Below are positions 2,348 through 61,960 of a stretch of 64,000 nucleotides of DNA, piece by piece. How positions within the stretch are numbered: the first letter of the stretch is position 1; each line of letters opens with the position of its first letter. The position numbers and the translations under genes were made by a program. The stretch is from positions 5,704,001-5,768,000 of the forward strand of contig OX597825.1 of NCBI GenBank assembly GCA_951406725.2, in the 5' to 3' direction. The notes beneath the pieces were generated by a model, which made no database searches, was not told where the DNA came from, and worked only from the letters and a program-made list of their open reading frames with translations. The stretch comes from Octopus vulgaris. Lineage: Eukaryota.

Positions 2348-2731
2348 GTGTGTATGTGTGTGTGTGTGTGTCAATACAAGTGAATTTCTATAAACGTTTG
2401 GTCGAATGATTCAGTGAATAGACTCTTTCAAATTGATGGCTTATTTGAATATGGAGAAGTTATGTTCTTGGCGTAGCAACATGTTCAGAAATACTTTTTT
2501 TTCCCTGATGGCAGCATTTATAGAGATATTTATGCTTCCTGTAACATCGACATCGTGTATTATAGAAGTTACACCTGTTCCATTGAAAACAACATTTGTA
2601 TAAAGTGATTTTTTTCAAGCAACATCTATAAAAAATGAGATTTGTTCTTCGTGCAAAAACACGTAATCAGGAATGTATTTAGGCTTCAAGTGACTTATTT
2701 GATTCGTCCGTTAACATAAGAGTATAATAAA

Positions 2732-3161
2732 GATGGTGAGATGGCAGAATCGTAAGCACGAGAAGCAAAATGCTTAGCGGCATTTCGTCTGCCGTTACGT
2801 TCTGAGTTCAAATTCCACCGGGGTTGACTTTGCCTTTTATCTTTTCGGGGTCGATACATCAAGCACCAGTTACGCACTGGGGTCGACGTAATCGACTTAA
2901 TCCGTCTGTCTGTCCTTGTTTGTCCTCTCTGTGTTTAGCTCCCTGTGAGCAGTAAAGAAATAAGAATCGTAAGCATGACGGGCAAAATGCTTAGCGGCAT
3001 TTCGTCCGTCTTTACGTTCTGAGTTCGAATTACGCCGAGGTCGACTTTACTTTTCATCCTTTCGTGATCGAAAAAATAAGTGCTAGTCGAGTACTTGGGT
3101 CAGTGTAATCGACTTATCCCTCTCCTAAAATTACTGGCCTTGTGCCAAAATGTGAAACCAG
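2732..3161 (+). mobile_element. tRNA-derived SINE family A (two modules)
   Basis: A-box-like TGGCAGAATCG, B box GAGTTCAAATTCC, and core GACTTTGCCTTTCATCCTTTCGGGGTCGATAAA..GTACCAG (resembles the Meta-SINE domain from memory). Confidence 0.85.
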
Positions 3162-4469
3162 TATAAGAGGATAGTAGTCTCCGATTGATTGAGAATTAAC
3201 ACAATAATTTAGCCATCGATTAAATCTATGTACGCAATTTCACTCATTAGGATATCATGAAACATAGTTCGATCTTTTTCAATAAACAGAAAGTTAGAAA
3301 AAATATTTCGTTTAACACTTTGACTACGTAATTAAATTTCGTGGTCATTCCCGTAATGATGTTAATAACTATCTACCAAAGAAAAGAATATTTTCTGCTT
3401 CTGCGATACTTTTTCATTATCTTCTGTAAGTATGGTTATCAAACCCACCATTGAAAGTGTTTGATTCGTGTTCTGTAACGCAATATTTGATGAAATGCGT
3501 GAAAAAAAAGTTAAGAAAACCTAAAAAAAAGTCGTCTTTTGTAAAAAGTGTCACGGAGCGGGGATGGGGCTTCGTCTCTCGAAACATAAGGATTTTTTTT
3601 TTTCAACGCCTTTGAGTAAAATATCTTTCAACAGTAAACGGTAATAACATTTTGAGTGAATATATCCGCTTCCCGCTTTCAAAGGGTTAATACACCAGCA
3701 AAGCTGTGTCTTTCATGATTAAGGAGGAAAATAGAAAAATCTGAAAGGGATCCGCTAGGTGACACATGGAAAATCTTCAAATTACAAAATGATATGATGC
3801 GGTTGGACATTGAATGACTTGTACATATTCTGAAATATTTTCCATTTTAGCTTTAGATTAATTTAACTGAAAGAATGTTCGCTCCTGACGAAATAGAAAA
3901 ATTTTCACAACAAAATCTGTCAATGATTTCTACATTTCACTTTTTCCCTATTTGAAAGATTAAATAAGAATTTTAATAGACAAGAACCTTAAAATGATTG
4001 AGTACCATGCCATGGCAAATACGTTTCAATGATTGAAAAGCCTGCCAAAATTGTCATTTATAGCCTGTCCGATAACATAATCCCGAAGATGAAAAACGAA
4101 GCCAGTACAGGAGTAAAACTAATAAATTAAATATGAATCTATAAGGCAAGGAAATATCGGTTTTACTGCATAGGAAGTAAAATTGTTACGGCGTAGAGAG
4201 AAGCGTAAAGTTATCGGTTTCAGTAAAGTGTTCTACGACGTTGTGTTGCGGCGAAAATGTAATAAATTGAAGTGCTGATACGTCGATGTGTTGGATTTTA
4301 ATAGGGGTGAGGCATGTTGAAAATAAGTGGCAACAAGTTAGATTCTGTTTTGGTTGTTGCACCAATTTACGCTTCGTCCTCGATCACATTGTCTATTTAC
4401 AACTGATGTCTCGATACGAAACGTTGGAGCAAAACATGAGTGCTAGCTCAAAGTTCTGTAGAACGTCTA

Positions 4470-4882
4470 GAAATACCTATTTCTTTACTACCCACAAGGG
4501 GCTAAACACAGAGAGGACAAACAAGGACAGACAGTCGATTGTCTCAACCCTAGTGCGTAACTGGTACTTAATTTATCGATCCCGAAAGGATGAAAGGCAA
4601 AGTTGACCTCGGTGGAATTTGAACTCAGAACGTAACGGCAGACGAAATACCTATTTCGTTACTACCCACAAGGGGCTAAATACAGAAGGGACAAACAAGG
4701 ACAGACAAACGGATTAAGTCGATGATATCGACCCCAGTGCGTAACTGGTACTTAATTTATCGACTCCGAAAGGATGAAAGGCAAAGTCGACCTCGGTGGA
4801 ATTTGAACTCAGAACGTAGCGGCAAACGAAATACCGCTAAGCATTTCGCCCGGCGTGCTAACGTTTCTGCCAGCTCGCCGCC
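4470..4882 (-). mobile_element. SINE family A with tandem modules; degenerate plus-strand copy at 4920-5085
   Basis: Reverse complement of the family A head, core and tail. Confidence 0.85.
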
Positions 4883-12965: not shown

Positions 12966-13160
12966 CAAAACGGAATTTATATGGAAATGTAACTATGCAA
13001 ATGTAGAACATATAAATGAAAGTACACTCCACTTGTAGACTAATGACCGTAACACTAAGTTTCAGTTTGTGTGTCAGTAGGTTTGAGGATGTCAGTTGAC
13101 TTGAGTGTGTGTCAGTATCTCGATTGTGTGTCTGTAATTTTGGTGTGCATCAGTAGGTCT

Positions 13161-15350
13161 GAGTATCTATCTCAATAGGTTTGAGCGTGTGTCAGTAGCG
13201 TTAAGTATGTGTCAGTGGGTCTGACTGCATCAGTTGGTTTGTGTATCTCTCTCAATAGGTTTGAGTGTGTGTCAGTAGCGTTAAGTATGTGTCAGTGGGT
13301 CTCACTGCATCAGTTGGTTTGTGTATCTCTCTCAATAGGTTTGAGTGTGTGTCAGTAGCGTTAAGTATGTGTCAGTGGGTCTGACTGCATCAGTAGCTTT
13401 GTGTCTCTCTCTCAATAGGTTTGAGTGTGTGTCAGTAGCGTTAAGTATGTGTCAGTGGGTCTGACTGCATCAGTAGGTTTGTGTATCTCTCTCAATAGGT
13501 TTGAGTGTGTGTCAGTAGCGTTAAGTATGTGTCAGTGGGTCTGACTGCATCAGTAGCTTTGTGTATCTCTCTCAATAGGTTTGAGTGTGTGTCAGTAGCG
13601 TTAAGTATGTGTCAGTGGGTCTGACTGCATCAGTAGCTTTGTGTATCTCTCTCAATAGGTTTGAGCGTGTGTCAGTAGCGTTAAGTATGTGTCAGTGGGT
13701 CTGACTGCATCAGTAGGTTTGTGTCTCTCTCTCAATAGGTTTGAGTGTGTCAGTAGCGTTAAGTATGTGTCAGTGGGTCTGACTGCATCAGTAGGTTTGT
13801 GTATCTCTCTCAATAGGTTTGAGTGTGTGTGTCAGTAGCGTTAAGTATGTGTCAGTGGGTCTGACTGCATCAGTAGGTTTGTGTATCTCTCTCAATAGGT
13901 TTGAGTGTGTGTCAGTAGCCTTAAATATGTGTCAGTGGGTCTGACTGCATCAGTAGGTTTGTGTATCTATCTCAATAGGTTTGAGTGTGTGTCAGTAGCG
14001 TTAAGTATGTGTCAGTGGGTCTGACTGCATCAGTAGCTTTGTGTATCTCTCTCAATAGGTTTGAGTGTGTGTCAGTAGCGTTAAGTATGTGTCAGTGGGT
14101 CTGACTGCATCAGTAGGTTTGTGTATCTCTCTCAATAGGTTTGAGTGTGTCAGTAGCGTTAAGTATGTGTCAGTGGGTCTGACTGCATCAGTAGGTTTGT
14201 GTATCTCTCTCAATAGGTTTGAGTGTGTGTGTCAGTAGCGTTAAGTATGTGTCAGTGGGTCTGACTGCATCAGTAGGTTTGTGTATCTCTCTCAATAGGT
14301 TTGAGTGTGTGTCAGTAGCGTTAAGTATGTGTCAGTGGGTCTGACTGCATCAGTAGGTTTGTGTATCTCTCTCAATAGGTTTGAGTGTGTGTCAGTAGCG
14401 TTAAGTATGTGTCAGTGGGTCTGACTGCATCAGTAGGTTTGTGTATCTCTCTCAATAGGTTTGAGTGTGTGTCAGTAGCGTTAAGTATGTGTCAGTGGGT
14501 CTGACTGCATCAGTAGGTTTGTGTCTCTCTCTCAATAGGTTTGAGTGTGTGTCAGTAGCGTTAAGTATGTGTCAGTGGGTCTGACTGCATCAGTAGGTTT
14601 GTGTATCTCTCTCAATAGGTTTGAGTGTGTCAGTAGCGTTAAGTATGTGTCAGTGGGTCTGACTGCATGTAGGTTTGTGTCTCTCTCTCAATAGGTTTGA
14701 GTGTGTCAGTAGTAGCGTTAAGTATGTGTCAGTGGGTCTGACTGCATCAGTAGGTTTGTGTATCTCTCTCAATAGGTTTGAGCGTGTGTCAGTAGCGTTA
14801 AGTATGTCTCAGTGGGTCTGACTGGACTGCATCAGTAGGTCTGAGTATCTATCTCAATAGGTTTGAGCGTGTGTCAGTAGCGTTAAGTATGTGTCAGTGG
14901 GTCTGACTGCATCAGTTGGTTTGTGTATCTCTCTCAATAGGTTTGAGTGTGTGTCAGTAGCGTTAAGTATGTGTCAGTGGGTCTGACTGCATCAGTAGGT
15001 TTGTGTCTCTCTCTCAATAGGTTTGAGTGTGTGTGTCAGTAGCGTTAAGTATGTGTCAGTGGGTCTGACTGCATCAGTAGGTTTGTGTATCTCTCAATAG
15101 GTTTGAGTGTGTCAGTAGCGTTAAGTATGTGTCAGTGGGTCTGACTGCATCAGTAGGTTTGTGTATCTCTCTCAATAGGTTTGAGTGTGTGTCAGTAGCG
15201 TTAAGTATGTGTCAGTGGGTCTGACTGCATCAGTAGGTTTGTGTCTCTCTCTCTCAATAGGTTTGAGTGTGTGTGTCAGTAGCGTTAAGTATGTGTCAGT
15301 GGGTTTGACTGCATCAGTAGGTTTGTGTATCTATCTCAATAGGTTTGACT
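13161..15350. repeat. Tandem array, 80-bp unit, about 27 copies
   Basis: Unit GTGTATCTCTCTCAATAGGTTTGAGTGTGTGTCAGTAGCGTTAAGTATGTGTCAGTGGGTCTGACTGCATCAGTAGGTTT, built from four related ~20-bp subunits. Confidence 0.95.
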
Positions 15351-16096
15351 GTGTGTGACAAAATGTTCTAATGTTTCTGTAGGTTTGAGCGTGTGTATGT
15401 TTGTTTTTAGGTTCGATTGTGAGCCAGTAGTATTGTGTATGTATGTGAAGGTCGTGGAGTGAAGCTGTCTGTAGGTTTGTGCGTCTTGGTAGGTTTGAGT
15501 GTGGGTCTGTATGCATGCGTAGATGAAGGTCAGTAGGTTTGTTGGTAAATCTCAAAGTTAAATGAATTATTTCGTAGACACACGTAAGAGGTCATTCACT
15601 TCAGACAAACTATAACGAATTATGTATTACTTTTTTGGGGGGTGAGAAAGCTATTCACCAAAATATGTCTGTCTGGTTTCCCCACCCACCCGCTCTCTTT
15701 TTCGTTCACATACACACACACACACACTCCACTCACACATACATATATGTGCGTATCTGTATATATGTATATATACACACATATGTATACATTTATAGAT
15801 ACATGCAATTGGATACATATTCACACGGATAGTCGCTTTCGCAGGCATACATACATACACAAACGCATGCACACACACAAACGCATGCACACACACACAC
15901 ATTCACATGTACATACACCAGATACGAGGCATACTAATTATGCGAGAAACTGATACCATATTCTCCGACCAATACCGATCTCAAAATGCATATGCATGTG
16001 TGTATATATGAACACTTACACACACATATATATACACACATATATATATACACACACATATATGTATACACTCATATATATACATACATCTATAAA

Positions 16097-21625: not shown

Positions 21626-22009
21626 CAGGGGTGAACAAAATAAAAGAAACACCTTAAAATTCCAAACAAATTTATTTTAATATGGAGTAGAACCGCCTTT
21701 GGCAGAAATTACAGCTTGAATTCTAAGAGGTATGGACTCGTACAAAGTTTGAATTGCTTCCAAAAGAATTTTTGTCCATTCTTCAACTAAAACAGTCTCC
21801 AGTTCTTGTAGTGATGATGGTGGAAGATATCGACTCCTTACTTGTTTTTCTAAAGTGCACCATAAATGTTCAATAATATTGAGATCTGGGGACTGTGGTA
21901 ACCAGATAAGTTGTTTAACTTCACTAGAATGTTCCTCGTGCCATTCAGTAACAACCTTAGCTGTGTAAATTGGTGCATTATCATCCTTAAAAATTGCGTT
22001 TCCCTCCAT
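21626..22009 (-). mobile_element. Tc1/mariner transposon fragment: transposase C-terminus and one TIR
   Basis: Translation FKDDNAPIYT..WLPQSPDLNIIEHLW..AVISAKGGSTPY is the canonical Tc1 C-terminus. Terminal TA|CAGGGGTGAACAAAATAA..GAAACACC at 21626. Catalytic D-to-E spacing is 36 residues. Confidence 0.9.
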
Positions 22010-22539
22010 ATGTTTATATCTTATATATGTATGTATGCATGTATAATGGTTGATTTACGTCCCCATAACTTATCGGATCACCAAAAGACACCGGCAGACT
22101 AAAAGCATTAGTATGGAAGTCTTTTTGTTTGAATAAATACCTTTAAGGTGGTGCCCCAACTTGACCACTATACAATGACAGAAACAAACGATATATTACT
22201 GAGAAAAACACAAAAACGAATACACACACATACATATACACGCACACGTATTTATATATGTGTATACATACACACCTCACACAGACACACACATATATAT
22301 ATATGTATGTATATATACATATGCATATATATTTATACACATATACATACACACACAAATATATTTATATATACTCACTCATCATACATTAACATATAAA
22401 CAAAAATGATAGAATAAAGGTTAATAATTCAACCCAGACGTCTTTAGTAATGAGAATCGCAACCAGAACGGAAAATTTGTCGCGCACCGAGCACATCCAT
22501 TTTCCATTTCCTCTTCTGCCTATATATATACACACACAC

Positions 22540-37692: not shown

Positions 37693-40437
37693 AATATTCT
37701 ATAATTATAATTAGGGGTCAGCTAATTGCTTCGCCACGCACCGAATTTAGAAATAGGAGCTACAACTCCTTTTCTACTACCATAAGAATCTAATACACCT
37801 AATATACTAATACAGCTGTTTGTTTTCTACACCACCTTTCTTCCTCATTTGTTTCTTTTTCGTGAATTCTCTATATATTTATATATACATAAAGGATTTA
37901 TTATTCAGGCTCAAACCTTTCGTAGTTACAAAATTGAATCAATGAAAAGTTGTGATGTTTATTCCATTTCCAAGAGCAATACTAAGATAAATGCCTAAGA
38001 TTATTGAGAGACGAAACAAAGAAACGAAAGAATTCGAACAAATGAATTTTCTGAACAATTAACGACGGACAGAGTATCTCGTAGAACATTAATAGCAAGA
38101 GAAACCTTTTCAAGATGTTATATTTTTATAATCTTTGAGTCATTAGCATTTGTTCCAAAATAGATTAATTCAGACTTCGCTAATTATAACATCGGTCTTT
38201 CACATTCTTTCTTGTTATTCTTCTTCTATTTTTGTATTTTCATTCATGGTTGCCATAGATGATGTCTGCAGATTATTTTAATCTGGCCTTTTCTTAACCA
38301 TTTGGTAAATATTCAATTGAATCTGAGAACTTCTTAGTTCTCGAGATCTCTTGTGTTCTACAAGGGCGGGTAAGAACGATAAGTACTCTAGAATTGTTAT
38401 GAGGACAAAAGCTAAGTAAATCAACCATATTTAGCTTTTTTCTATAGAAATGCAACCTTTGTTTCAACTATTTTTTTTTTTAAATAATGGAGTATTTAAT
38501 AAAATAACTTTCTCATTATTAAGCTGTCGTTCGGAACAGAAATTAACATGAAATTTCGATGGAAAATTTTAAATTATCTCACTTTCATGGTTGGTGGAAT
38601 CGCGTGGCTTAGTGGTTAGGAGTGTTGGGCTCGTAATCACAAGATAGTGGTTTCGATTCCTGGACTGGGTGATGCATTGTGTTCTTGAGCAAAACACTTT
38701 CTTTCACATGACTCCAGTTCACTCATCTGGCAAAAATGAGTTATCCTGAGACGGACTGGCGTCCTATCCAGGTGGGGAATCTTTACACCATGGAAGCCAG
38801 GAAACCGACCTTATGAGTCTATGGCTCGAGAAGGAACTTTTTTTCTTTTTCATTTTTTTTAAGCAAGTTGAAACAAAAATAGTTGAAACAAAGGTTGTAT
38901 TTCTATAGAAAAAAGCTAAATATGGTTGATTTACTTAGCTTTTGTTCTCATAACAGAACAAGGGACGGTCTCAGGCAGTTTGATATCAAAAGATACAGCA
39001 GCCGGTGTGGAGGCGCACTGGTCCAGTTGTTAGGGCAGCGGACTCGCGGTTGTAAGAACACGGTTTCGATTCCCAAACCGGGCATTGTGAGTGTTTATTG
39101 AGCAAAAACACCTAAGCTCCACGAGGCTCCGGCGGGGTGGTGTGAACCCTGCTGTACTCTTTCACCACAACTTTCTCTCACTCTTTCTTTCTACTTCTGC
39201 CACAAAGCAGAGGAAACATGGTGTAACCCACTATGGTGTGGTAAACTTTCAGACCCTAGTCTAGATTGCGAATTCTCTGTACCCCAGGATGGTTCAGCTC
39301 TCCACTCGTTAAAAGCCACCGTTTACGGAATGAGGATAACAACGTAGCTTTCGCGCCCGTGCAACCGCCAGTCTATCGCGTGTGGTGGGTGGATTTTCAA
39401 GTAGCTTAGAGTAGGCTCGAATTAGAGATCATTCTTTGTGGCTAATGGCGTGAGTCCTGATTGGAAGAAGAAGAAGAAGAAGAAGAAGAAGAAGAAGAAG
39501 AAGAAGAAGAAGAAGAAGAAGAAGAAGAAGAAGAAGAAGAAGAAGAAGACAGCAGCAGCAGGTTATGAAAGGCTTTAGAATAAACCAAGACAATGATAAA
39601 GGAAACTTTTTCATTTCGCGTTTTTAGTATTTGGGTGTCTGCAATGAAGCCTTTCTTTGCTCGTAGCTCTTCACATTACTTCCTTTGATTATTTTGAATG
39701 ACAACATTTATTAAAATTGAGTTCATATGGACCAGTTTGATTGTCTGCAGATTATTAATTTTCCGTCAAACAACCCAGCAAGAATCCTCTTTTTTTCTAG
39801 TCACATCCTTAAGATTTGGATTGCAAGCGAATAAAATATTGACCAGTTACGCAGTAGCGAATGTCATCGTCTACCGTAGCCTAATTACGGTTTCGCTACG
39901 GGTACAGCAACTCTTACATCTAAAGAAAGATACGATCCACGAACTGTCCGATCGTTAGGAATGTGTTGGCATTCAAGATTCTCATCATTAAAATCTGTTG
40001 GCATTCAAGATTCTCATCGAAACAAAATATAGTCAATCAGATCGCAACCAGACTGTTAATCTTCTGAATATTTCAAATATCCTCCTCATAAATAATAAAC
40101 CACCAAAACTGTCTGCGATACGAATTTATCATCAAACATCTCAAAGCGACGAGATGGCTGAATTGTAAGCGCGTCGGACAAAATGCTCAACAGCATTTTC
40201 TTCCGGCTCTTTTACGTTCTGATTTTAAATTGTGCCGACGACGACTTCGCCTTTCATCCTTTCGGCGTCTATAAAATAAGTACCAGTTGTGTACTGGGGT
40301 CGATGTCGTCGACTTACAAGCTTCCTTATAATTGCTGATCTTGGGTCAAAATTTGAAACTATCATTAGACAACTCATAAGCAGAGGAGCAATATCAGTTT
40401 TTACTCCCTTTTATTCTTCAACCATTGTCAAATTATT

Positions 40438-40569
40438 TACATTTGACAGATATTTGTCCTCATCTTTTTGCTGTTAACACAACCTTTCGGCTGATACACT
40501 CTCCAGCCTTCATCAGGTGTCTTGGGGGAAATTTTGAACCTAGGTTCTCATTCCTAAGGTATTTTTCGA

Positions 40570-40613
<44 letters not shown>

Positions 40614-40904
40614 TCACTGCCTGGAATCGAACTCGAAACGGGCATATGGCGTAGTGGTTAAGAGCGCGGGCTACTAACCCCAAGATTCCGAATTCGATTC
40701 CAGGCAGTGACCTGAATAATAATGATGATAATAACAACATCGAAAAAAATACCTTAGGAATGAGAACCCAGGTTCGAAATTTCCCGAAGGTACCGATGAA
40801 GGCTGGAGGGTATATCAGCCAAAACGTTGTGTTAACAACACACAAGATGAGGACAAATATCCGTCAAATGTAAATAATTCCTCATCTCTTAAATATAGAA
40901 CTGT
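40438..40904 (+). mobile_element. tRNA-headed, hammerhead-containing non-autonomous retroelement with PLE-type inverted arm (copy 1)
   Basis: 14-bp TSD ATTGTCAAATTATT (40424-40437 and 40905-40918). Inverted arm 40431-40635 is the reverse complement of ~40689-40879. tRNA-like head at 40640-40714 with A box TGGCGTAGTGG and B-box-like TTCGATTCC. Unpaired 3' tail CCTCATCTCTTAAATATAGAACTG. Confidence 0.8.
40475..40521 (-). ncRNA. Minimal hammerhead motif in the inverted arm of copy 1 (one core change)
   Basis: Minus strand reads GACAC CTGATGA A GGCTG GAGAGTGTAT CAGCC GAAAG GTT GTGTT. The sense copy at ~40789-40833 is more degenerate (CCGATGA..CAGCC AAAAC). Confidence 0.55.
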
Positions 40905-42659
40905 ATTGTCAAATTATTCTACCGAATCTTAAATTCATATTTCATATTCAGCTTGACTTGCCTGGTTGTTGTTCAAATCAACTGAGGCCGTTTCATTTTC
41001 TTTAAGTGGAATAAATTTATCTACTCTTTTAGCAGATTGGGCGATTACATGGAGATCCGCTTGCTGGTTAGCAAATTGCTATGAGTTCGAATTGCTTTTG
41101 TTCACGTTTTAATTTGTTTCTGAATAGACCACTTCCCCAGTCCATCTGGCTGTTAATAGGTACTTGATCAATTTGATTCATCTTCAGTCTCTGAAGTTAT
41201 TTAATCATCACCATAGTTCGCTGTACTTTCTGCAACCTTCATGCCGCTGCTTTCTGTTAACTTACTTTATTTATTTTCTTGGTGTAATCTTCGTCACAAG
41301 TCCATTCTTTTCTACTCTAGGCACAAGGCCCGATATTTTGGGGGAGGCAGCCAGTCGATTATATCGACTCCAGTACGCAACTGGTATTTAATTCATCGAC
41401 CCCGAAAGGATGAAAGGTAAAGTCAACCTCGGTGAATTTGAACTCAGAACGTAAAGATAGACGAAATACTGCTAAGCATTTCGCCCAGCGTGCTAACGTT
41501 TCTGCCAGCTCGCCGCCTTTTGTCACAACTCCATTGAATCGTAGCTGCGACATAGTAATGATTTCCAGTTTTTCACTTCGATGCTTCTTATCCTTTCAAA
41601 AAGGATTAATGCGTCTAATCTTTTTCCAAAGGATTAACAGCATAGATGGTTTTAGCCTTCCTTTGGGAAAGCTATGAACATCACAGTAGCTATTCCTACT
41701 TTCCTTATACACACCTGAAGATTTTGCTTTTATCGATATTTACAATATTTGTACATGACTAGAGAAGAATATAACCGTGAAGACAACTTGTTATGACGGG
41801 TGGCTCTTTTGTCCAAATCTTACTGCATTTTACATGGAACTTTTGGTCTTCCAAAGTCGTTTTGGTGTATAAGTCTACCTACATTTTTTGGCTGTAAATT
41901 TTGGCCTGCAAAAAATTTGACTTGAATGCCAGAAAAAGTGGTATCTGCCACTTTTAATTTTTGCCTTACTGGAATAAACTTACCTTTATCAACACAATTT
42001 ACTGTCTGAAGCACTTTAGATTATCATCATCATCGTCGCTTAATATTACTTAATCCATAGTGTTGAGCAGCTTCTCAATCTGTAATGTTATCGTTCCTTT
42101 CTCTAAAAATAGTATTTGACAACACTTTGTAAACGAAACAGAACTCTGAATTATACATACTGTATGTATACTTTAAATATGTATATATCTATGGTCCAGC
42201 GGACTCGCGGTTTCGTTTCCCAGACCGCGCACTATGAGTGACTATTGAGCAAAAACACCTAAAGCGTCACGAGGCTCCGGCAGGCGGGGGGTGAACCCTG
42301 CTGTATTCTTTCACCATAAATTTCTCTCACTCTTTCTTCCTGTTTCTGTTGTACCTGTATTTCAAAGGGGCCAGCCATGTCATACTCTGTGTCACGCTGA
42401 ATCTGCCCGAGAACTACGTTAAGGGTACACGTGTCTGTGGAGTGCTCAGCCACTTGCACGTTAATTTCACGAGCAGGCTGTTCCTTTGATCGGATCAACT
42501 GAAACCCTTGTCGTCGTATCCGACGGAGTACCACACACACACACTTCTTTCTTACCTTTCCTGAGCGTCCAATAACGCTATACTTGTTCCACGTCCTCGC
42601 GTTGTTGTGTTTTCTCTTTTTCATGTTTGGATTACCTATATATATATATATATATATTT

Positions 42660-54530: not shown

Positions 54531-55142
54531 TTAAGCATCACCGCTTCCTATACTATCGCTTTCCGGGGTGGAGGAGCAGCTGTCGTGTAAATAAGAGTCG
54601 TTATCATCTTCTTCTTCCTCTTCTCCTAAATGGCGCTCGTCGTTCTCATCTGGACTTTCCTGAATAGGGTCCAAGTTAGACATAGCCGATATCGTCCTTT
54701 GTCGCTTACAACGTTGGGGCAAAGATTTTGGTTTCCGTTTCGACTTCGCCTTAGTTTTCGTTTTCGAGCTGAGAAAACGCATGATGGATGTAAGAATTCC
54801 TTTGGCACCATTAATGGACGAATCTGTCCTGTCGCTGCCGGATTTGTCCGACTTTCGGTTGCATCCCGGAATCTGCTTAGCATCCATGTTTGGCATTGAT
54901 GTCGACATAGGTCCACATCGACGTCCGTACATCTTGGAATCGCAGAGAACTGGTAGTGACTTGGAACCGTCAGCCTTGACGATGTAACTGTAAGTAAATC
55001 CATGACGGTCCTTCAGGGTCACTTGATACGCCTTGCCTGGTTGCAATTTGAACTCCTCGTTTAATTTCCCGTTCTTGTTGTTTCTACCTTTGTTCTGGTT
55101 AGAAACAAACGGCATATAGCCACGTGTAGCGTTAGGAAACAT
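54531..55142 (-). CDS. Uncharacterised intronless 203-aa protein with a basic patch, RxRxxS and LxxIxE motifs and an acidic C-terminus
   Basis: Only long ORF here with non-repetitive composition. ATG lies in an A-rich context (TTCAACAATG), the stop is TAA, GC is raised relative to the flanks, and the surrounding region lacks SINEs. No family recognised. Confidence 0.7.
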   Translation of the reverse strand: MFPNATRGYMPFVSNQNKGRNNKNGKLNEEFKLQPGKAYQVTLKDRHGFTYSYIVKADGSKSLPVLCDSKMYGRRCGPMSTSMPNMDAKQIPGCNRKSDKSGSDRTDSSINGAKGILTSIMRFLSSKTKTKAKSKRKPKSLPQRCKRQRTISAMSNLDPIQESPDENDERHLGEEEEEDDNDSYLHDSCSSTPESDSIGSGDA

Positions 55143-55484
55143 TGTTGAATTTCCTTGTTAAATTAAATAAAATATATATCTGTCTGTATATATATTATAT
55201 AGAGTAGAATATATATATATATACCTGTATGTGTGTATATATATATATGTTTTGTAGTAAGTCTTGATTAGCTGTAATTATCTCGTGGATAATGCTTCTT
55301 TGACACACTAGCAGTTGTAATGGTAGTCACTCACTGATACAATTATTTGATTTTAATTAATCAAATAAATATATTTTGTTTTTTATGACTGTAGTTGATT
55401 GTTGATGATAATGAAGACGTTTTGGAAATTATAAAAGATTATATCCAAAGTAGTGGAATAGAATGTTTAAAAGCCAAGTCTGGA

Positions 55485-61247: not shown

Positions 61248-61671
<424 letters not shown>

Positions 61672-61960
61672 GGATTATACCCTATTTAAGCTGTGCTCTG
61701 GTGTCAATAAACAAATACTATAGGCCCGCGAGGCTTTATAATGTTGCTAAGACAACTTTGGGTGCAGTTTCATTTTCTAGTTATTGTACTTTCACCACAG
61801 TCCAGTTTTTACCTGTGCAACTGTAGATATGTAGATACTGCCCACTCCAGCATGCAGTGGTTTAACTGTAGAATGTAAAACCGGAAAAAAAAGGCCACTA
61901 AGCATTTTGTCCGGCTTGTACACAACAATAACAATAATGATGATGATGATAATCATAATG

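Follow-up and report, generated by a model that had tools for sequence, protein, structure and literature searches.

A short insertion in the Octopus vulgaris genome derives from the terminal repeat of an autonomous Penelope/Poseidon-type element with a tRNA-derived head, a likely RNA polymerase III promoter

Penelope of Drosophila virilis (PMC2377424) and Poseidon_Ac of Anolis (PMC11167929) are Penelope-like elements (PLEs) with one open reading frame (ORF), in which a reverse transcriptase (RT) is joined to a C-terminal GIY-YIG endonuclease (EN). As these elements are described there, a minimal type I hammerhead in the pseudo-long terminal repeat (pLTR) overlaps the ORF start, two 3' ends define a tail, and insertions carry an inverted 5'-truncated partner or form partial tandems. 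For the Anolis Poseidon, reverse transcription was reported to initiate internally at the two sites that bound the tail, with both strands nicked and extended and with the ORF start lying in the hammerhead, which was dispensable for insertion in vitro (PMC11167929). Here we analyse a short insertion in a 64-kb window of the Octopus vulgaris genome (positions 5,704,001 to 5,768,000 of contig OX597825.1, assembly GCA_951406725.2) that belongs to an element sharing the ORF organization, the hammerhead, the two 3' ends and the inverted and tandem arrangements. Unlike Penelope and Poseidon as described, the octopus pLTR starts with a tRNA-derived head bearing A and B boxes, most copies begin at this head, and the sense strand is devoid of runs of four T (T4). 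We propose that the locus is a short insertion of the pLTR of an autonomous Penelope/Poseidon-type element and that the head is probably an RNA polymerase III (Pol III) promoter that fixes the RNA's 5' end.

A first-pass annotation of the window had described this insertion as a short interspersed element (SINE) parasitising a PLE. Its anatomy, that is a 14-bp target-site duplication (TSD), an inverted arm, a tRNA-like head, a TAA run, a hammerhead motif and a tail, was recovered part by part where it had been placed (Table 1), and the inverted copy of about 200 bp said to lack the tail is a tail-less arm corresponding to unit nt 47-238. Mobilisation by a PLE was likewise borne out: an RT and GIY-YIG PLE shares the module, and the tail and inverted arms follow the pattern of PLE integration. 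The separate SINE, however, found no support, as the coding element itself has the entire unit, head included, before and after its ORF. The first clue was a match in whose flank, next to a fragment of RT, the tail reads through to an N-terminal frame resembling that of PLEs. Searches with N-terminal and RT pieces then returned loci where the whole unit, again with its head, lies directly before the ORF or directly after the ORF end. Twenty RT-selected loci were extended, ten of them picked after the downstream head had been seen; among the ten unseen before fetching (L191-L200), the ORF end was reached in eight and the unit came next in all eight, the other two breaking off earlier. Copies with the order pLTR-ORF-pLTR (L167, L173, L178) and tandems with the order ORF end, pLTR, ORF start (L163, L170, L179) were both found.

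The majority sequence of 20 long copies defines a 2,655-nt repeat unit with a single 835-aa frame, which is the autonomous RT and GIY-YIG partner sharing the 3' module that the first-pass annotation had proposed to look for. The order in the unit is head, (TAA)n, ATG, hammerhead, tail, ORF (N-terminal domain, RT, GIY-YIG), stop, 32 nt and the next head; the ATG lies at unit nt 119, the stop 32 nt upstream of the next head, and the frame crosses both hammerhead and tail. The protein of a relative, P0152, aligns across the hammerhead and the tail, showing that the tail is coding sequence. A GT..AG-like intron in the tail was considered and rejected: it was absent among the RNA joints displayed (47 more joints were not displayed, and depth over the ORF was low), and the reading frame, which stays open and keeps its homology with P0152 in this stretch, makes it unneeded. 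The frame contains DKG and YVDD motifs and a C-terminal CVYSIPC..YKG, and matches Pfam RVT_1 with an E of 2.4e-10; Pfam made no GIY-YIG call on it. The modelled C-terminus superposes on the GIY-YIG domain of I-TevI with a Z of 9.7 and a root-mean-square deviation of 2.7 over 87 residues, T4 EndoII and UvrC coming next, and a Foldseek search gave no match at E<=0.001, I-TevI being top-ranked. Judging from this predicted fold, the C-terminal domain is a GIY-YIG endonuclease. There is no CxxC in the 835 aa; a CSC lies between the GIY- and YIG-like motifs, with His residues downstream. The definition of Penelope/Poseidon given in PMC8557442 includes a C-terminal EN with a CC..HH motif, a retained DKG and no CX2-5CxxC linker zinc finger, and by these motifs the octopus sequence fits it. 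With one ORF for RT and GIY-YIG, direct and inverted pLTRs, and a tail on one end, the element has the features of an EN-bearing PLE, and the unit is almost certainly its pLTR. The closest relatives of the element are 60-68% identical; an annotated Octopus sinensis protein is 73% identical to its C-terminal part, and a search for sister families in the genome gave matches of 53-71% identity, several of them at known loci of the family. Contigs from four runs with three organism labels cover 30 of 30 bins of the full element, their depth not being used as a copy number. A second, very young PLE family is present in the same genome (L317:8345-9583; L400-L406), where 18 of the 40 top matches score as full identity across 1,239 nt and tandem copies are spaced by about 6.2 kb. 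Its stop-to-stop frame measures 884 aa, poly-T directly follows the stop, and an A/B-box head is absent; this family has probably been active recently.

By comparison with tRNA-derived SINEs (SINE2), the insertion has a head with A and B boxes, and it lacks both a distinct non-autonomous family sharing only its 3' end with an autonomous partner and a 3' end of the long interspersed element (LINE) type with a poly(A) or simple-repeat tail. The absence of such a tail was already pointed out from the sequence; the 3' end is PLE coding sequence. Comparison of 65 solo with 28 ORF-linked near-full units gave an identical majority sequence over head and hammerhead, and variants of high frequency are shared by the two sets, the exception being nt 53 (9/65 solo against 0/28), where the query taken from the window has the change as well. 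On a tree of 190 columns, 21 changes account for the solo and ORF-linked labels, compared with 24.2 for shuffled labels (P=0.075), and the majority of supported clades are mixed. On present data, the solo copies do not appear to be a family distinct from the ORF-linked pLTRs. The expected linkage of head and hammerhead was found in 23/30 head-selected loci, where the module follows the head; a same-strand head was present in 16/30 module-selected loci. In an unselected sample restricted to contigs C1-C10, made up of 120 stretches of 10 kb at regular spacing (1.2 Mb), we counted 19 clusters, which for a genome of 2.8 Gb gives an estimate of about 44,000 insertions (Poisson range about 27,000-69,000), mostly short. 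Identity of these unselected copies to the family majority is 73-95%, mostly 84-92%, which indicates that the family is old. One element is likely to make its own enzyme and, by this estimate, tens of thousands of SINE-like copies.

The integration signature is that of a PLE. The 116 clusters comprise 62 back-to-back inverted pairs, 53 single-orientation clusters and one other. In 42 of the 62 pairs, one arm ends at the tail (nt about 273) and the other at nt 228-256 (mode 247), the remaining classes including one tail/tail and two short/short combinations. The 3' ends are thus fixed at two sites while the arm lengths vary, in agreement with the constant 3' end and variable inverted arms predicted for PLE-mobilised copies. 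Direct repeats of at least 9 nt (9-14 nt) flank 26/116 clusters and 1/116 displaced controls. Counted from the cluster listing, these TSDs are nearly confined to inverted pairs (24/62 versus 2/53 single-orientation clusters), which suggests two different resolution routes. Several loci combine a short tailed arm with a complete tail-less arm, and from this we infer two independent priming events rather than fold-back alone. The two fixed 3' ends and the tailed/tail-less pairs match the RT start sites and the two-strand nicking reported in PMC11167929. Head-to-tail repeats of the unit, which characterize non-LTR retrozymes as tandem hammerhead units, are rare (for example L028 and L110). Short telomere-like TTAGGG repeats were also seen at element junctions, at about 1741-1757 of L020 and downstream of the head in L076.

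A mechanism may be suggested, in which transcription would start 2-7 nt upstream of the head and the element's own protein, an RT-EN acting in cis, would nick both DNA strands 9-14 bp apart. Reverse transcription would be primed at two internal sites in the ORF start, as in the Anolis Poseidon, and two cDNAs, or fold-back at a small hairpin at the head, would yield back-to-back tailed and tail-less arms. Because the priming sites would lie just about 250-275 nt from the RNA 5' end, most events would copy only the pLTR and be SINE-sized, and full-length copies would need priming at the downstream pLTR of a tandem transcript. The head itself probably goes back to a tRNA-derived sequence with a TAA tail that inserted into the 3' untranslated region (UTR) of an ancestral PLE.

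The resemblance of the head to tRNA was assessed with a sample of 35 tRNAs around 30 tRNA loci of the same genome, many tRNA types lying outside this sample. The best global score of the head was 14, whereas none of 500 dinucleotide shuffles scored above 5, and a profile built from the 35 tRNAs matches it with an E of 2.9e-5; by sequence, then, the head is tRNA-like beyond chance. Both boxes are retained in the family majority sequence. ARAGORN and Rfam called no tRNA at the head, Rfam matches being at chance level only, and the predicted folding of the head does not surpass that of shuffled sequences (z +0.5 and +1.2). The closest sampled tRNA is Arg(TCG) with 49 identities, followed by Ala (48) and Arg(TCT) (47), and Arg(TCG) may tentatively be named as the source. 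An A/B-box match just 3' of the ORF stop was found in none of 79 distant metagenome relatives (29-51% identity, many truncated; the match in L360 lies inside the ORF end) and not in the second octopus PLE family; relaxed ARAGORN runs on related PLEs gave scattered calls that we treated as noise.

The 5' boundary of the copies coincides with this head. When 60 arms were aligned from the first head base, with queries holding no bases upstream of the head, 4 extended at least 12 nt into the 3' UTR and 56 did not, and the match to the 3' UTR fell to background level beyond -7. The junctions fall into 33 that retain or extend a small palindrome and 23 with neither the palindrome nor a 3' UTR extension of at least 12 nt; nine of these 23 start with AC (P=3e-6) and five with GT (P=0.009). 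In the unselected 1.2 Mb, 8 of 10 head-reaching clusters end between -16 and +19, the other two continuing to -59 and -418. It follows that the template usually ended between -7 and +1. Pol III normally initiates at such a distance upstream of an A box. Pol III initiation is thus the likeliest cause of the pile-up of 5' ends, as the boxes and junctions suggest, and the head probably functions as a Pol III promoter; the AC dinucleotide before the head at the window locus is likely what is left of the 5' leader of the RNA. RNase P cleavage at the head is disfavoured because many copies retain AC upstream of the head. A second hot spot of truncation was noted at the (TAA)n run, unit nt 73-105, where many unselected copies start. 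We also aligned RNA to the tandem junction, using one contig set and, for a related organism, about 6% of the reads in each of three raw runs. Coverage was roughly 380-1060 per direction over the pLTR, about equal both ways, and about 0-18 over the N-terminal ORF; no place with a pile-up of read starts or ends was visible. With library strandedness undefined and the reads probably coming from copies within host transcripts, this coverage does not bear on Pol III.

Runs of four or more T terminate Pol III transcripts. An absence of T4 was accordingly predicted before counting, and the 2,655-nt sense strand has 0 such runs, whereas a codon shuffle leads one to expect 2.9 (P=0.026) and the other nulls 5.0 (P=0.005) and 4.7 (P=0.0095). 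Real copies contain 12 runs where 23.7 are expected, and 43 other long frames from the fetched loci contain 197 versus 169. In 31 related PLE ORFs (some duplicates) there are 171 runs against 165.6 expected, three ORFs having none. Windows with four T in five number 3 in the ORF against 10.2 +/- 2.5 expected (P=0.0012); the 29 distinct related ORFs have 507 against 469 expected, with a lowest z of -1.5, and the corresponding A, C and G windows in the ORF are not significantly depleted. The depletion of T runs hints at, but does not prove, selection along the ORF against termination by Pol III. Transcription of the whole coding element end to end by Pol III, with terminators lost from a 2.5-kb ORF, is a tentative extension of the promoter hypothesis that we hold possible rather than probable. 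If true, the PLE would act as its own SINE, at once autonomous retrotransposon and SINE source, and its protein would be made from an uncapped RNA.

Several observations weigh against the promoter interpretation and have to be set beside it. A natural palindrome, TGCCC-AC-GGGCA, sits exactly at the head boundary and is retained or extended in 33 of the 60 junctions, so that a promoter would not be needed for a sharp 5' end if a hairpin guided stopping or joining. Junctions centred on GT (11/56 versus 0/17 ORF-linked) would require either that mismatches were repaired once two cDNAs had annealed or that secondary solo masters exist. The D. virilis Penelope pLTR promoter is described as TATA-less and LINE-like (PMC2377424). 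On the T4 test alone, 2/31 control ORFs reach P<=0.05, and the four-in-five statistic is post hoc, being adopted once the T4 result was in. Clustering of the solos is slightly favoured by the tree test, and most copy sets were chosen by similarity to a query, the unselected set consisting of 19 clusters only. Part of this would be accommodated if the tRNA-like part of the pLTR were an inert relic in the 3' UTR, the element being transcribed by RNA polymerase II (Pol II) and copies being stopped by hairpin-triggered fold-back or cDNA joining. The hairpin is indeed present in ORF-linked copies, the palindromic junctions have a 2-nt centre, a LINE-like promoter is what the description of Penelope would lead one to expect, and some copies do pass beyond the head (4/60 aligned arms and 2/10 unselected clusters). 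An inert head nevertheless seems unlikely to us: the 23 non-palindromic junctions end at the same place, nine of them with just the AC, both boxes are intact, and T-run depletion across the ORF would not be expected.

Less probable still is a true SINE lineage, in which short copies would propagate themselves from solo loci by Pol III, a PLE would mobilise them in trans, and the head would have joined the PLE later through tandem insertion or template switch. Solos do far outnumber coding copies (RT or N-terminal sequence occurs in 1/19 unselected clusters), GT-centred heads occur only outside ORF-linked copies, and one supported five-member clade consists of solos only. However, no majority change is specific to solos, the two frequent solo-skewed changes (nt 28, and nt 53 as above) are both present in the search-query sequences, and the unit is found at all eight unseen RT-selected loci with a complete ORF end. 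Moreover, the Anolis Poseidon RNA needs ORF sequence 3' of the RT start sites (PMC11167929), which the solos are without. Inverted arms and a TSD at the window locus could also recall a miniature inverted-repeat transposable element, that is a non-autonomous DNA transposon with terminal inverted repeats. Such a transposon can be dismissed with near certainty, being ruled out by the variable arms and the RT-GIY-YIG linkage: arms measure anything between a few bases and the whole unit and are asymmetric, with the tail on one side, 53/116 clusters have one arm only, TSD length is not fixed (9-14 bp), and an RT ORF is joined to the unit.

The pLTR unit of the window copy measures 265 bp, and the coordinates of its parts are collected in Table 1. 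The minimal hammerhead announced by the first-pass annotation stands for the family and fails for this forward copy. Across 93 copies, most core positions of the minimal type I motif are kept in 83-90, the less conserved ones being a variable U7 and a CpG-prone G, each in 70/93; the short helix I, the extra base before stem II and the palindromic helix III match the description in PMC4209133. In the forward copy the motif is broken, a core base being absent after 40793 and GAAA being changed to AAAA; in the inverted arm, CUGAUGA and GAAA are intact and stem III is changed. The hammerhead is here considered as a predicted motif within a PLE pLTR.

Table 1. Parts of the short insertion and a second family copy, with positions counted from the first base of the 64-kb window.
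Feature	Position	Strand	Remarks
Left target-site duplication, 14 bp	40424..40437	+	Identical direct repeat; its last 7 nt are also the end of the inverted arm
Inverted, 5'-truncated, tail-less pLTR copy	about 40431..40638	-	Contains B box, TAA run and hammerhead
AC dinucleotide	40638..40639	+	Same two bases precede the head in ORF-linked copies
tRNA-derived head of pLTR	40640..40713	+	A box 40647-40657, anticodon arm 40668-40680, B box 40690-40701
(TAA)n spacer	40715..40738	+	Length differs among copies
ATG	40760..40762	+	Start of the 835-aa RT-GIY-YIG frame in ORF-linked copies; frame-shifted in the window copy
Minimal type I hammerhead	40789..40833	+	Stem II 40801-40820; predicted cut after 40828; core mutated here
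PLE tail	40880..40904	+	Bounded by the two favoured 3' ends (unit nt about 247 and 273); coding in ORF-linked copies
Right target-site duplication	40905..40918	+	Identical to 40424-40437
Second copy of the family	61261..61672	.	Inverted partial arm, partial head, long expanded TAA run, module with tail

Other features of the window include a SINE-like repeat of about 200 bp, far more abundant and often in inverted pairs (40151-40316, 41304-41518, 2729-3164, 4470-4882 and others), an array of tandem repeats about 80 bp in period (about 13044-15511), a fragment that by eye resembles a Tc1/mariner transposase (21677-22054, minus strand) and a 208-aa non-repetitive frame (54531-55157, minus strand) that may be a host exon.

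In the literature searched, we found no PLE with a tRNA-derived pLTR or a Pol III promoter and no paper on short sequence motifs of this family, which Repbase, Dfam, SINEBase or the library of PMC13282606 may already contain. It is quite possible that the short unit was annotated earlier as a SINE; repeat annotation would likely label the short copies tRNA-SINEs although they are pieces of a PLE. Octopus tRNA-SINEs named OK, OR1 and OR2 were reportedly described by Ohshima and Okada in 1994. The octopus unit shares with them a tRNA-derived origin and a high copy number. OR1 and OR2 are cited as CORE-SINEs (PMC4758252, PMC3531059; for further context on octopus SINEs, PMC4824008 and PMC8967140), whereas TAA repeats and PLE sequence directly follow the head in the octopus pLTR. 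The octopus repeat annotation of PMC13282606 does not mention hammerheads in its main text.

The schistosome repeats SM-alpha and Sj-alpha (reviewed in PMC6765202) are among the closest known cases, with a Pol III-type promoter that precedes a hammerhead within a single short repeat. Unlike these, which are presented as non-coding and often tandem, the octopus unit is dispersed, combines a minimal PLE hammerhead with a PLE tail, and lies within a coding element. Non-LTR retrozymes (PMC7229834; bioRxiv 10.64898/2026.07.22.740005) and MRC1 (PMC8557442) are likewise short non-coding sequences related to PLE ends. Retrozymes are defined in the available text as tandem hammerhead-bearing units, with no tRNA head mentioned, whereas in octopus the short copies correspond to the pLTR of the autonomous family to which they belong. 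A Pol III promoter derived from a small RNA also occurs in the terminal repeats of the TRIMp3 retroelements Cassandra, Helenus and Ajax (PMC10886601), the octopus head being promoter-like only. TRIMp3 are described as non-autonomous LTR elements with a primer-binding site, a polypurine tract and TSDs of 4-5 bp, whereas the promoter-like head of octopus sits in an autonomous element. It is argued in the same paper that the autonomous partners of TRIMp3 must use Pol II (PMC10886601); whole-element Pol III transcription, if true, would run counter to the view that a coding retrotransposon depends on Pol II.

The sharp 5' end and the two fixed 3' ends provide a natural read-out of PLE integration over tens of thousands of copies, covering two-strand priming, a stagger of 9-14 bp and tail asymmetry, for a mechanism so far studied mainly in vitro. 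What is new, as compared with the literature searched, is the tRNA head as a fixed part of an autonomous PLE, which links SINEs and PLEs.

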